64,000 nt of DNA from Minisyncoccota bacterium. GTDB lineage: Bacteria > Patescibacteriota > Minisyncoccia > Phycocordibacterales > UBA9973. Location: positions 1,713 to 65,712 of the forward strand of contig DASTLQ010000008.1 of the NCBI GenBank assembly GCA_035714785.1. The letters are read 5' to 3'. Shown in pieces: positions 17,063 through 21,202 of this stretch (position 1 is its first letter; each line of letters starts with the position of its first letter). The position numbers were made by a program, and so were the translations under genes. The notes beneath the pieces were generated by a model. The model was not told the DNA's origin. It made no database searches and saw only the letters and a list, made by a program, of their open reading frames with translations.

Positions 17063-17422
17063 ACAATAATGAAATTGCGATATATATACTGTCGCTCCCG
17101 CCGTGGCGGACGCGTTATGATTTTCAAATTTCTTAACAGGAATCGAACAATTAGTACTTCTCAGCTCTACACATTACTGTGCTTACACTTAAAGCCTATC
17201 AACCTGATCATCTCTCAGGGTTCTTAACGATTCCTAATCTTGAAGCTGGCTTCCCTCTTAGATGCTTTCAGAGGTTATCCATTCCCGACATAGCTACCGA
17301 GCAATCCACTTGGCAGTAGAGCTCGTACACCAGAGGTCAGTTCACGCCGGTCCTCTCGTACTAAGCGCAAATCTTCTCAAGAATCAACGAGTGCAGTAGA
17401 TAGGAGACCAACCTGTCTCACG

Positions 17423-17748
17423 CATCTACGTCCATAATTACTTATGGGATTGGACTATAGCTTCATCTTTCTTCAGTTTTTACTTGAATAAGACTGCTGA
17501 CGTTTAGTCTCTACGGGTTCCGCCTACTGGCAGATTCCCTCGGTATTGCCCTCACTTTCGTGATCGGGTTTCACCGATACTAGTCAGCTTCACGTCACGC
17601 ATTTCTGTGTGACGCCGCCGTGATGTGCTAAAGCAAATGAATGCCATGCACGTGGTTGTTTTCGATTTATAACAGTCTAATTCGTTCTGAATTATTTTCC
17701 TCTGTAGGGTTCAGATCGTCAAAACCACAAGTTTGTCTTATGATCTCA
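17423..17748 (-). other. Group I intron (ORF-less) in 23S rRNA at the E. coli position ~2593 equivalent
   Basis: Exon junction GGGTTCAGACCGT|intron|CGTGAGACAGG. The intron follows U and ends in G. R-like (GTAGAGACTAAACG) and S-like (GAAGCTATAGTCC) elements are present. Confidence 0.65.
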
Positions 17749-18411
17749 ACGGTCTGAACCCAGCTCGCGTACCTTTTTAATTGGCGAACAGCCAAACGCT
17801 TGGGAGCTTCTCCACCCCCGCGCTAAGGTGAGCCGACATCGAGGTGCCGAACTCCGCCGTCGATATGAACTCTTAGGCGGAACTAGCCTGTTATCCCTAG
17901 AGTAGCTTTTATCCGTTAATCTAAACCCGCATCTAATGCGAAATTTCGGTTCACTTAGTTCTGGTTTCCCACCTGCTCGGGAAGTACCCCTTACAGTCAA
18001 GCCATCTTATGCCTATACACTATCGGCACGGTTTCCATTCGCGCCTAGATGACCTTTAAACCCCTCCTTTACTTTTTAGGAGGGTACAGCCCCAGTAAAA
18101 CTATCCACCAGATACTGTCTCAGTCCGTTTTTTCCGTACTGGTTAGAACATGCCTTCAAAAAGAATGGTATTTCACTGACGAGTAGATAACAGCCGAAAC
18201 CGCTAACATCAGACCTCTCCCATCTATTCTACGCAGTTTAAAAACATGCTCAATATCAAGTTATAGTAAAGCTTCTAGGGTCTTTTCGTCTAACTGCACT
18301 TAACCGGCATCTTCACCGGTATTGTATTTTCACCGAGCTGGTCCCCGAGACAGTTTCCCAGTCATTACACCATTCGTGCGCGTCGGAACTTACCCGACAA
18401 GGTATTTCGCT

Positions 18412-18625
18412 CTTCTATACCCAAGAAGGACTCTATCTTCATCCTCTCCGAAGAGGTGGGATGCTTGACGCTGGTCTCTCGTTAGCCAAGTTTTGACTGT
18501 CTCTACATTACTCTAGAGCAGGTAGCATTCGAATAGTCTAATAATTTTTTAATTTAATTGTTTACTTTTTTCTACAACAGTCCCAGTCATTCCGCGCTCG
18601 TCTGCCATAGGCAAACAAATGCAGA
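18412..18625 (-). other. Group I intron (ORF-less) in 23S rRNA at the E. coli position ~1917 equivalent
   Basis: Exon junction GGTCCTAAGGT|intron|AGCGAAATACCTTGTCGGGTAAG. The intron follows U and ends in G. R-like (TGTAGAGACAGTC) and S-like (GAAGATAGAGTCC) elements are present. Confidence 0.6.
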
Positions 18626-19394
18626 ACCTTAGGACCGTTATAGTTACGGCCGACATTCACCAGGGCTTATATCAGTCTGCATATCTCCATCTTGCGACAA
18701 AGAAACACCGCCGATATTTGACCTTCTGGCATTGGTCAGGTGTCACCCCCTATACATCCTCTTACCGAGTTCGCAGGGAGCTGTGTTTTTGGTAAACAGT
18801 TGCCAGGAATACTTTCGCTGCGGCCGGCATTTCTGCCGGCAAGCCTTATCCCGAAGTTACGGCTGCTTTTTTGCCGAGTTCCTTGGGGACCTCTCACTCG
18901 TTCGTCTTGGTCTACTCGACCTGATCACCTGTGTCGGTTTGCGGTACGGATTCCATATTTTTAAGTTTAGAGATTTTTCTTGGAAGCGTGCTTTGCGAAA
19001 TTGCCCTCGGCCTAAACCGAAAACTTTTCACTTCTCTTGGATTCGCTATTTAAAGCAGCGCGCGGATTTTCCTACGCATCATCCTCAAGAAGCAAACTTA
19101 AATCCATTAATAAGCGACGCATACTACACTCCGTCCTCTCATCACAAAATATGGAAGTGCAGAAATATTAATCTGCTCTTCCATCGGGTGCGGATTTCTC
19201 CATCCCCTTAGGCCCGACTAACCCTTGGCTGATTATCATTACCAAGGAAACCTTGATCTTTCGACGTGATGCGTTCTCAGCATCATTGCGGTTACTTGTG
19301 CCAACATTCTTACTTCCACACGCTCCATAGGCCCTCACGGGTCCTACTTCACAGCAGAGTGGAACACTCTCCTACCACTCGTGAACTTCATAGA

Positions 19395-19705
19395 GGAGCC
19401 GATATTTTTTTATATCGGCTTTCAAACAATTTCGGGGTTCTCCGCAACATCAATCCACACGTTCAGAACACCATATTTAACGTATTGGAGAACCCAAAAG
19501 AACAAATCGTGCCCAGGAAGCGGGATTAAAACCCGACAAAGACCTTCGTCTTTGTATGCTTTGTTTTAACAAAAATTTTTTAAATTAGTTTTTATTTAAA
19601 CATCGCCTGATTGTTACTACTACCGGCTCAATATATCATACACGATATACCAGTACGTAACCCTCCTGGGCTGGCCACCCACCTTGGATGCGAAACTCTT
19701 CCTCT
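19395..19705 (-). other. About 310-nt insertion in 23S rRNA at the helix-45-equivalent region (IVS-like, bounded by a ~16-bp long-range stem)
   Basis: It lies between conserved CCGAA.. and GGTAGGAGAGTGTTC. The flanks GAATTTCATAGAGGA / TCCTCTATGAAGTTC can pair with each other. No group I signatures were seen. Confidence 0.4.
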
Positions 19706-21202
19706 ATGAAATTCACGAATCCTCACATTCGGTACTATGCTTAGCCCCAATTATTTTCGACGCAAAATCTCTGGATGAGTGAGCTGTTACGCTATCTTTA
19801 AAGGATGGCTGCTTCTAAGCCAACCTCCTCATTGTCAGAGAAATTTCACCTTCTTGTCTTGCACTTAGCATAGATTTAGGGACCTTATATTGAGATCCGG
19901 GCTGTTTCCCTTTTCACCAATGGAGCTTAGCCCCCACGGTGTAACTGCCGCATTCTGGCTTCTGGTATTCGGAGTTTGATAGGTTTCGCGAGATTGCTCC
20001 CTGTCGAAACCTTCCAGTGCTCTACCCCCAAAAGAAACATGCGACGCTAGCCCTAAAGCTATTTCGGAGAGAACCAGCTATTACCAGGTTCGATTAGCTT
20101 TTCACTCCTTACCACAAGTCATCCCAACGCGTTGTACGACGAACGGGTTCGGACCTCCATAAGTCTTTCGACCTACTTCATCCTGCTCATGGCAAGCTCA
20201 CCTGGCTTCGGGTCTTATGCATGATATATTTATTTCGCGCTATTAACACTCGGTTTCCCTACGGCTCTGCGGTTCTCCCGCTTAACCTACAACATGCATA
20301 AACTCGTTGGCTCATTCTTCAATAGGCACGCTGTCGCAGATATAAATACCTGCTCCAACTCCTTGTAGACATACGGTTTCAGGTCTATTTCACTGCCCTA
20401 ATCGGGCTTCTTTTCACCTTTCCCTCACGGTACTAGTTCACTATCGATCTGTTAGAGTATTTAGCCTTAGCGGTTAGTTCCGCTGGATTCCCCCCGGCCA
20501 TTCGTGTCCTGGGGTACTCAAGAACGGCAATAAAAGAGATAAATTATTTTCGCTTACGGGCCTATCACCCTCTATGGAACCGCTTTCCAGCAGTTTCAGC
20601 TAATAATTTATTTTTTTACTCTTCTAGTAATCTACATTGCCGCCTTACAACCCCCAAATATTGCTACTTGGGTTTGGGCTCTTTCCTTTTCGCTCGCCGC
20701 TACTTAGGAAATAATTTTTATTCTCTTTTCCACCTGGTACTGAGATGTTTCACTTCCCAGGGTGCGCTCTCTGAATCAAGTTCAGAGTTATTGAGGTTTG
20801 CTCAATAGGGTTTCCCCATTCGGAGATCTCCGGATATATTGGTTGCTAGGCACCTCCCCGGAGCTTATCGCAGCTATGCCACGTCCTTCATCGCCTCTAA
20901 CAGTCTAGGCATCCACCGTACGCCCTTAATTTCCTGTTAAGAAATCTGAAAATCATAATTTTCATTTAGCTTTCTTTTCCGACCGCTCGGCATAAGAAAG
21001 CTGTTCTACCTACCGACATAAAGACCCCTTGGAAAGATTCATATCTTTACAAAAGAAATTGTCGTAGTAGCTTTAAGTTTTCAATCTTCAATCCGTTTCG
21101 GCAAACAAAAAACCGCCTTGTGGGCGGCTAAAAGAAAAAAACTTCTCTTTAGCGCCGCCTTTTGAGTTTCGTGTTTTTCGTTATTGTCATACTGATTGGG
21201 CT

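Follow-up and report, generated by a model that had tools for sequence, protein, structure and literature searches.

Three insertions in the 16S-unlinked 23S rRNA gene of a candidate phyla radiation bacterium: a group I intron, a reduced group I derivative and a putative intervening sequence

A 23S-5S unit with three insertions

We analysed the rRNA locus of a 64,000-nt stretch of contig DASTLQ010000008.1 from a Minisyncoccota bacterium (the window throughout), in which a 23S rRNA gene interrupted by three insertions and a 5S rRNA gene lie on the minus strand. The 23S gene covers 3,808 nt (17132-20939 (-)) with its three insertions, which we call intron A, element B and the helix-45 insertion; it aligns end to end with positions 1-2925 of the Rfam large-subunit (LSU) model and exceeds that model by ~880 nt. 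An earlier interpretation made without database searches (the sequence-only reading) had described a 23S gene of about 3.8 kb with insertions at these places in a 23S-5S unit lacking 16S; both parts of this description proved accurate, and the strand, which it left unstated, is the minus strand. Insertion boundaries were set to the nucleotide by comparing the minus-strand reading with relatives that lack each insertion, and sites were numbered by landmarks because the E. coli 23S copy in our set (L001, 2,900 nt) is offset by 4-7 nt from standard E. coli numbering. The features on which the argument rests are as follows.

20939..17132 (-): 23S rRNA gene (Rfam RF02541, 2286 bits)
16955..17060 (-): 5S rRNA gene, separated from the upstream 23S gene by 71 nt (Rfam RF00001, 70.5 bits)
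17423..17748 (-): intron A, a group I intron at L2593 without an open reading frame (ORF) (Rfam RF00028, 54.9 bits)
18412..18625 (-): element B, read as a degenerate group I derivative at L1931 without P4-P6 and endonuclease ORF (RF00028, 21.7 bits)
19701..19720 (-): 5' strand of the helix-45 stem, AUUCGUGAAUUUCAUAGAGG, in duplex with 19396-19377 and conserved in insertion-bearing relatives
19397..19700 (-): interior of the helix-45 insertion, 304 nt, with no ORF, Rfam family or tRNA
19377..19396 (-): 3' strand of the helix-45 stem, CCUCUAUGAAGUUCACGAGU, in the same duplex and conserved in relatives

Directly upstream of the 23S gene lies a gene for an MscS-type membrane protein (21348-22043 (-)), and a terminator-like hairpin, recognized by eye, and a promoter-like site also stand just upstream of the 23S gene. 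This MscS-like gene retrieved 80 related loci from species-representative genomes, mostly metagenome-assembled genomes (MAGs) labelled Candidatus Nomurabacteria, Paceibacterota, Minisyncoccia, Patescibacteria, or Saccharibacteria (third-party annotation, TPA, assemblies), and the order MscS-like gene to 23S is kept in related loci of sufficient length. An Rfam scan of the 64-kb window found no 16S (small-subunit) rRNA, and blastn with a 3' fragment of E. coli 16S found none in the window or in 123 fetched loci (one of them a short Logan contig). A 16S gene directly upstream is unlikely because protein genes fill the 43 kb on that side. Seven relatives scanned with Rfam have the same layout, with 23S-5S and no 16S. 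Collectively, these findings show that the locus is a 16S-unlinked 23S-5S unit of a Paceibacteria/Nomurabacteria-type (Parcubacteria-group) bacterium of the candidate phyla radiation (CPR). Patescibacteria are among the clades reported to have exclusively unlinked rRNA genes (Brewer et al., bioRxiv 10.1101/705046); the window likewise has its 16S apart from 23S-5S, and nothing notable differs.

An ordinary group I intron at L2593

Intron A occupies 326 nt (17748..17423 (-)) between GGGTTCAGACCGT and CGTGAGACAGG, and its junctions read ...GGGUUCAGACCGU / UGAG...AGAUG / CGUGAGACAGG, with the 5' exon ending in U and the intron in G. Group I introns follow U and end in G. From the landmarks U2585 and A2602 we take the insertion point to lie after U2593 (E. 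coli numbering), the I-CreI-type site, and an empty site in two relatives, L074 and L086, makes the boundaries exact. The Rfam group I model matched 17431-17640 (-) at 54.9 bits, above its gathering score of 50, and in that alignment (17640..17431) the core is complete from P3 to P9, comprising P3 (GCUGAC/GUCAGC), P4-P6, P7, P8 and P9, with AGACUAAACG as the R element and GAUGAAGCUAUAGUCC as the S element. Two candidate pairings exist for P1, of which GUGGUUU gives a G.U pair and a long exon complement, GAUCUGAACCC, sets an A opposite U-1.

Homologous L2593 introns of 306-707 nt are present in most relatives, and the longest of these, the 707-nt intron of L121, encodes a LAGLIDADG_1 protein. 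On the rRNA strand of the window none of the three insertions holds an ORF of homing-endonuclease size, the longest stop-free frame in intron A being 52 aa. Judged from its core and junctions, intron A is a bona fide and ordinary group I intron lacking an ORF, as is left when the usual cycle of gain and loss of homing-endonuclease genes has run its course, and its structure suggests that it would be removed by guanosine-initiated self-splicing.

A group I derivative without P4-P6 at L1931

Element B (18625..18412 (-), 214 nt) lies between GGTCCTAAGGT and AGCGAAAT, at a site that we take to follow U1931, counted from helix 69 (psi1911/1915/1917) to m5U1939. Its junctions read ...ACGGUCCUAAGGU / UCUGC...AGAAG / AGCGAAAU, again with U at the end of the 5' exon and G at the end of the element, and the exon ends that splicing would join are ...CCUAAGGU + AGCGAAAU; the empty site of ~24 relatives makes the boundaries exact. 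The Rfam group I model matched 18410-18598 (-) at 21.7 bits against the gathering score of 50 (E = 0.0011, 241-nt search), and the homologue in L111 scored 24.1 bits. Within the alignment P3, P8, J8/7 and the 3' strand of P7 match, GAUGAAGAUAGAGUCC equals the Rfam consensus at 12 of 13 positions, and 89 model positions of P4-P6 are reduced to 8 nt.

Comparison with relatives explains this pattern. Short forms of 206-236 nt occur at L1931 in eight further lineages (L005, L007, L012, L031, L038, L044, L070 and L111), and long forms of 699-782 nt that encode LAGLIDADG_1 proteins occur in L091, L104 and L121. Because the ORF splits the model, Rfam misses the long introns, and their cores were read by hand and with RNAfold. 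After the 5' strand of P3 (CAUGGC/UUGGC) and UAUA, the long forms continue with the P element UGCUGG, a P5 hairpin, the Q element AAUCAGCAGG and the ORF, behind which CAGAG(A/G)C(C/U)A...GCC forms J6/7-P7-P3'; P and Q elements (UGCUGG...CAGCAGG) and a P4-P5 fold are thus present between P3 and J6/7. Element B is collinear with these LAGLIDADG-bearing introns, which supports group I descent, and has only UAAC between its P3 5' strand and its J6/7-P7 strand, leaving no P4-P6 domain. The distance from P3 5' to J6/7 is 9 nt in all nine short forms as opposed to 509-627 nt in the long forms, and the short form is therefore a deletion derivative. From this collinearity, element B is best described as an L1931 group I intron derivative that lost P4-P6 and the endonuclease gene together. 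A different fold, in which the helices UGACU/AGUCA and GGGACU/AGUCCU form a rearranged P3/P7 pseudoknot, was dropped since the long forms place UGACU/AGUCA in a peripheral domain upstream of the true P3.

The remaining structure shows no decay. As modelled, it has a 5' hairpin, an internal hairpin, a peripheral long-range helix, the helices P3, P8 and P9, and a pairing between two loops. On an alignment of nine sequences it leaves 95.9% of the cells paired, and 13 pairs are changed on both sides; shuffles give 4.2 such pairs, with none of 500 reaching 13, and sliding the partners yields no more than 4. P3 and P8 covary among the short forms, and an 18-nt block, GGAUGAAGAUAGAGUCCU, that spans P8', J8/7 and P7' is invariant in them at 17 of 18 positions. 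A further conserved segment is the following.

18519..18525 (-): GCUACCU, complement of the ligated exon junction AGGU/AGC, inside element B and invariant in 9/9 short forms

This heptamer occupies the place of the internal guide sequence of the L121 intron (GCU/GCCUUAG), and the long forms have GCUGCCU. We read element B as a degenerate group I intron that is still selected for its splice-site-positioning and guanosine-binding features. It descends from a LAGLIDADG-encoding group I intron and keeps P3, the J6/7-P7 strand, P8, J8/7, P9, the terminal G and the guide sequence, which nine lineages conserve with compensatory changes. It is probably still removed, but not autonomously: self-splicing on its own cannot be assumed, and removal by group I-type chemistry would draw on the help of a protein, of its own peripheral domain or of another RNA.

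For the two group I elements the sequence-only reading fared unevenly. Its ORF-less 326-nt intron at about position 2593 was borne out by the score above threshold, the U at -1 and the terminal G, and so was the lack of homing endonuclease genes. The 214-nt element had been placed at about 1917, which is a different classic site, 14 nt away from L1931; its group I descent stands, while its description as a group I intron fails to reflect the missing P4-P6 and an Rfam score below the threshold that intron A exceeds.

Element B also shares an 11-nt identity with the downstream exon: AAUGACUGGGA followed by CUGU (18581-18591 (-)) matches AAUGACUGGGAAACUGU in the helix 71-72 region (18356-18366 (-)), with weaker collinear matches (GACCAGC, GAAGAU) after it. 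This may be chance or exon mimicry.

Relatives carry further 23S insertions. L046 and L011 have a different insertion ~13 nt upstream of L1931, a position consistent with L1917, which in L046 (~15026-15355) is a group I intron scoring 82.5 bits, and ~800-nt insertions occur elsewhere in domains V-VI of L011 (~13740-14543 and ~15114-15909) and L044 (~14732-15584). From this variety we conclude that intron content turns over fast in the clade.

An insertion in helix 45 with the anatomy of an intervening sequence

The third insertion replaces the hairpin equivalent to E. coli 1164-1185, a site of known intervening sequences (IVSs), which take the place of the tip of helix 25 or helix 45. Between fixed anchors the window has 346 nt, compared with 29-32 nt (a 12-bp hairpin) in 15 relatives. 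The strands 19720-19701 and 19396-19377 close the insertion; paired by hand they give 20 bp, and duplexfold predicts 21 continuous bp at -33.6 kcal/mol, in line with the ~20 bp or more that would suit RNase III. The sequence-only reading had the helix and the IVS-like anatomy right and gave the stem as 16 bp, which is the distal part of the longer duplex. The predicted fold of the complete element has an energy of -135.8 kcal/mol (z = -10.5 relative to shuffles).

No homologue of the interior was found among 42 other helix-45 insertions, in which the stem alone resembles the window. An Rfam search at E<=10 returned nothing relevant, the sole match being a weak opposite-strand CRISPR repeat (E=3.3), and no cloverleaf was found in the window insertion by ARAGORN in default, relaxed or intron mode or by the Rfam tRNA model at E<=10. 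Nor did an nhmmer profile built from 16 helix-45-embedded tRNAs rank the window above 500 shuffles. Two features are shared with other members of the group: a terminal hairpin that abuts the 3' stem strand, as in all the other cassettes, and the following motif.

19497..19505 (-): TTGTTCTTT, a motif like the boxA of the E. coli rrn spacer, inside the helix-45 insertion

By analogy and from the comparative data described below, RNase III excision is the best reading of this insertion. The IVS would be cut out and the ends left unjoined, most probably through RNase III cleavage of the 20-21-bp stem, and after removal of both introns the 23S rRNA would consist of 5' and 3' pieces of ~1.2 and ~1.7 kb held together by the remaining stem.

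Helix-45 cassettes of some relatives enclose tRNA genes

Long helix-45 insertions (124-496 nt) are present in 7 of 22 scored related loci and absent from the other 15, and L078 adds one of 377 nt; the sporadic presence among close relatives is that of an IVS. A metagenome scan with the 3' strand of the helix-45 stem gave 42 loci, 34 with a measurable insertion (141-600 nt). Across relatives and metagenomes, at lengths of 124-600 nt, the stem is conserved and the interiors are unrelated. With the stem kept and the interior free to vary, the pattern is the one predicted for an excised spacer.

Genuine tRNA genes lie within this stem in four relatives, on the strand of the rRNA and inside a full-length 23S gene.

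L010:9434-9600: Gly(GCC), Val(GAC), rRNA strand, helix 45
L046:14087-14276: Ala(GGC), Val(AAC), rRNA strand, helix 45
L020:12334-12412: Glu(UUC), rRNA strand, helix 45
L078:5023-5215: Gly(ACC), Trp(CCA), rRNA strand, helix 45

The four tRNAs of L010 and L046 scored 59-63 bits against the Rfam tRNA model, and ARAGORN called tRNAs on the rRNA strand in 11 of the 34 metagenomic insertions (two of the 11 as an ambiguous 'tRNA-???'). Ala(GGC), which has the G3:U70 identity pair and an encoded CCA, is among the examples in these cassettes, along with Trp(CCA) and tRNAs for Gly, Val, Glu, Thr, Lys and Leu. Two of the anticodons, AAC (Val) and ACC (Gly), are unusual. Of 43 helix-45 insertions, 28 contain GTTCTTT, the core of the TTGTTCTTT motif, typically 6-16 nt upstream of a tRNA, and its conserved form there is (T)TGTTCTTT. 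A similar sequence in the E. coli rrn spacer, TTTGCTCTTTAAAAATC at L001:958, is known as boxA, the NusB/S10 antitermination site. A search for TTGTTCTTT in 23S leaders matched only terminator loops of the upstream gene, and a boxA in the leaders as support for antitermination was dropped.

Maturation of these tRNAs must cut the pre-23S at helix 45, so fragmentation there is evidently tolerated in the clade, and the tRNA-bearing cassettes thereby strengthen the IVS reading of the window insertion. We encountered no description of tRNA genes within a bacterial 23S gene in the literature searched, whose coverage is incomplete and gives no proof of novelty.

Transcription signals, processing stem and other features

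Further features of the leader and flanks are listed here.

21203..21231 (-): promoter-like site, 11/12 positions of a sigma-70-like consensus
20940..20967 (-): 5' flank of the 23S gene, half of a 28-bp processing stem whose partner is the 3' flank at ~17112-17139

The promoter-like TTGACA-17-TATACT (21231..21203 (-)) is the top match in 16700-21400 and ends 264 nt before the 23S 5' end, in agreement with the ~265 nt given in the sequence-only reading. The 23S-5S unit would be transcribed from this sigma-70-type promoter. Two points weigh against such a reading: the promoter call is a consensus match only, and a terminator-like hairpin stands in the 23S leader at 21129..21111. The flanks of the 23S gene pair over 28 continuous bp (-38.5 kcal/mol, duplexfold), and this predicted leader/trailer stem is a likely site of pre-23S release by RNase III.

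Within the leader (21111-21190 (-)), between the promoter-like site and the 23S gene, the terminator-like hairpin carries a U run (AGCCGCCCACAAGGCGGUU UUUUGUUUGC, 21129..21111) and is preceded by a longer hairpin, both using an AGCCGCC strand. The leader of L111 is similar, and the pair looks like an attenuator/anti-terminator layout.

Elsewhere in the window, a tRNA-Met(CAU) gene (3860-4167 (+)) is split between anticodon-loop positions 33/34 by a 238-nt group I intron (3891-4128, Rfam 66.4 bits) with the junctions ...CAAGGCU / CAAAUAUGG...GGUAAG / CAUAACCUUG; after in-silico removal of the intron, ARAGORN calls tRNA-Met(CAU). The window holds no second copy of this intron or of the three 23S insertions, and an origin from a miniature inverted-repeat transposable element (MITE) or another repeat was rejected. 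Some 2.2 copies of a 77-nt unit, 98% identical, occupy 16788-16957, beginning at the 5S 3' end and preceding a protein gene at 15974-16762. In a spc-type ribosomal protein cluster (34331-35289 (-)), S5 (34645-35289) is directly succeeded by a 102-aa ORF without a Pfam match, after which SecY probably follows, as judged from size (422 aa) and position only. An L30 gene would not fit in here, in keeping with the absence of uL30 across CPR.

Weighing the alternatives

The whole is best and, in our judgement, quite likely explained as the single, 16S-unlinked 23S-5S unit of a CPR bacterium, with a group I intron at L2593, a P4-P6-less derivative at L1931 and an RNase III-excised IVS in helix 45. 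The principal alternative for element B is that it is no longer a functional intron and stays in the mature 23S rRNA as an expansion segment near helix 69-71, the fate reported for the L1931 intron of Simkania negevensis. Element B lacks the P4-P6 scaffold needed for canonical group I catalysis, its canonical P7 is only 3 bp long, and in all short forms the base opposite the splice-site U is A, in contrast to the wobble G of the long forms, giving an A-U pair in place of G.U; for these reasons, and with an Rfam score of 21.7 bits, it may not splice at all. That case at L1931 itself sets a precedent (Everett et al. 1999, 'An unspliced group I intron in 23S rRNA', cited in PMC1995217). A retained segment nevertheless accounts poorly for what has been conserved. 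Across nine lineages whose other segments have fully diverged, no change is seen in the complement of AGGU/AGC, in J8/7, in either strand of P7 or in the terminal G, and these conserved parts are the ones used in group I chemistry, which a spacer would not require. We consider retention of element B rather unlikely. A second alternative is that the helix-45 insertion escapes excision and forms a large, folded expansion segment of the ribosome. Its exceptionally stable fold (-135.8 kcal/mol, z = -10.5) would also suit such a segment, and helix 45 lies on the surface of the ribosomal particle. A signature-motif search of the window found no RNase III gene, a result that is uninformative for the whole genome. 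Given that the interior has no homologue among 42 insertions of 124-600 nt on the same stem, that the stem alone is conserved, and that relatives hold tRNA genes there which must be cut out, we regard retention as fairly improbable. CPR bacteria retain rnc, the RNase III gene (PMC12641178).

Release of the helix-45 insertion by RNase P and RNase Z acting on a decayed tRNA-like fold, and not by RNase III, was considered because relatives carry real tRNAs in the same cassette. By eye, a T-arm-like hairpin in the window, CGGGUUUUAAUCCCG, equals the T arm of the L010 tRNA-Gly at 13 of 15 positions and lies directly against the 3' strand of a stem of 9-10 bp (GCCCAGGAG/CUUCCUGGGC), which closes a four-way junction in the minimum free energy (MFE) fold. 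This hairpin has no statistical support, and the ARAGORN (relaxed and intron mode), Rfam tRNA and nhmmer profile searches were all negative; we rejected the decayed tRNA, suggestive as it appears by eye and in the MFE fold, and hold this route of release to be doubtful at best. Finally, the 23S gene could be a pseudogene or an assembly chimera with artefactual insertions: the window is metagenome-like, misassembly is frequent in rRNA regions, and the 23S gene is where many related contigs break. The full-length LSU model, however, aligns end to end over intact and conserved exons, and many MAGs and metagenome contigs that were assembled independently show the same three sites, the same stem and homologous introns, which makes an artefact extremely improbable.

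Relation to known rRNA interruptions

All three insertions are of kinds already documented as common in CPR, and the novelty attached to the locus by the sequence-only reading was overstated, since its features are catalogued as frequent there (PMC11270868; bioRxiv 10.1101/705046). Insertions occur in 82% of CPR 23S genes (Tsurumaki et al. 2024, J Bacteriol, PMC11270868, and Brown et al. 2015, cited therein). The same survey reported group I introns concentrated at 1917, 1931, 1952, 2593, 2604 and 2657, 222 of them ORF-less, as well as non-intron insertions at classical IVS sites (PMC11270868), and the window, from a Parcubacteria-group genome, fits this pattern exactly. That survey classed insertions by Rfam model and Pfam only, under which element B would be 'uncharacterised', and its main text makes no mention of tRNAs. 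What lies beyond the catalogue is the P4-P6-less yet structurally conserved L1931 element and the tRNA-bearing helix-45 cassettes of relatives.

L2593 introns are known in cyanobacteria, and the introns of Simkania, Thermotoga, Synechococcus C9/C1 and Thermosynechococcus occupy the same two sites as those of the window (PMC1995217). As in known bacterial introns, the L1931 and L2593 introns of relatives encode LAGLIDADG proteins of the single-motif type, and the ORF extends into the ribozyme core, whereas the window introns are ORF-less and span 326 and 214 nt, compared with 654-748 nt in the known L1931/L2593 introns, the one at L1931 also lacking P4-P6 (PMC1995217). A further parallel is provided by degenerate rDNA introns of lichen fungi (DePriest & Been 1992 and Haugen 2004, via bioRxiv 10.1101/2021.05.01.442275), which are ~230 nt long and thus short like element B. 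They are without sequences needed for catalysis and non-self-splicing, and are nevertheless removed in vivo and maintained in rRNA genes. These introns are eukaryotic and nuclear, and the parts they miss may differ from those missing in element B.

The helix-45 insertion shares the helix, the long terminal stem and the sporadic distribution of the IVSs of Salmonella, Leptospira, Campylobacter and Coxiella (PMC4990558, PMC2801512). The Coxiella IVS, excised by RNase III, has a 28-bp stem and folds at -143 kcal/mol (PMC4990558); the stem of the window is shorter at 20-21 bp, and the predicted stability is similar. Unlike known IVSs, the window element has no S23p-type ORF and an unrelated interior, and its stem family bears tRNA genes and a boxA-like motif in relatives, for which we found no report for any IVS.

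These comparisons invite a broader proposal, which we put forward tentatively and rate as rather less than probable: that the helix-45 stem marks an undescribed rRNA intervening cassette, a mini transcription and processing unit of which the window carries a tRNA-less descendant, and that the P4-P6-less L1931 element is at the same time a minimised intron that still splices. Under this proposal, many members of the cassette would hold the boxA-like TTGTTCTTT followed by one or two functional tRNAs, whose maturation would obligatorily split the 23S rRNA, and the L1931 element would use its own conserved peripheral domain or the P4-P6 of another intron in trans. The tRNA genes in helix 45 would link tRNA supply to rRNA transcription and force 23S fragmentation, and element B, if it still splices, would be a natural experiment on how little ribozyme suffices.

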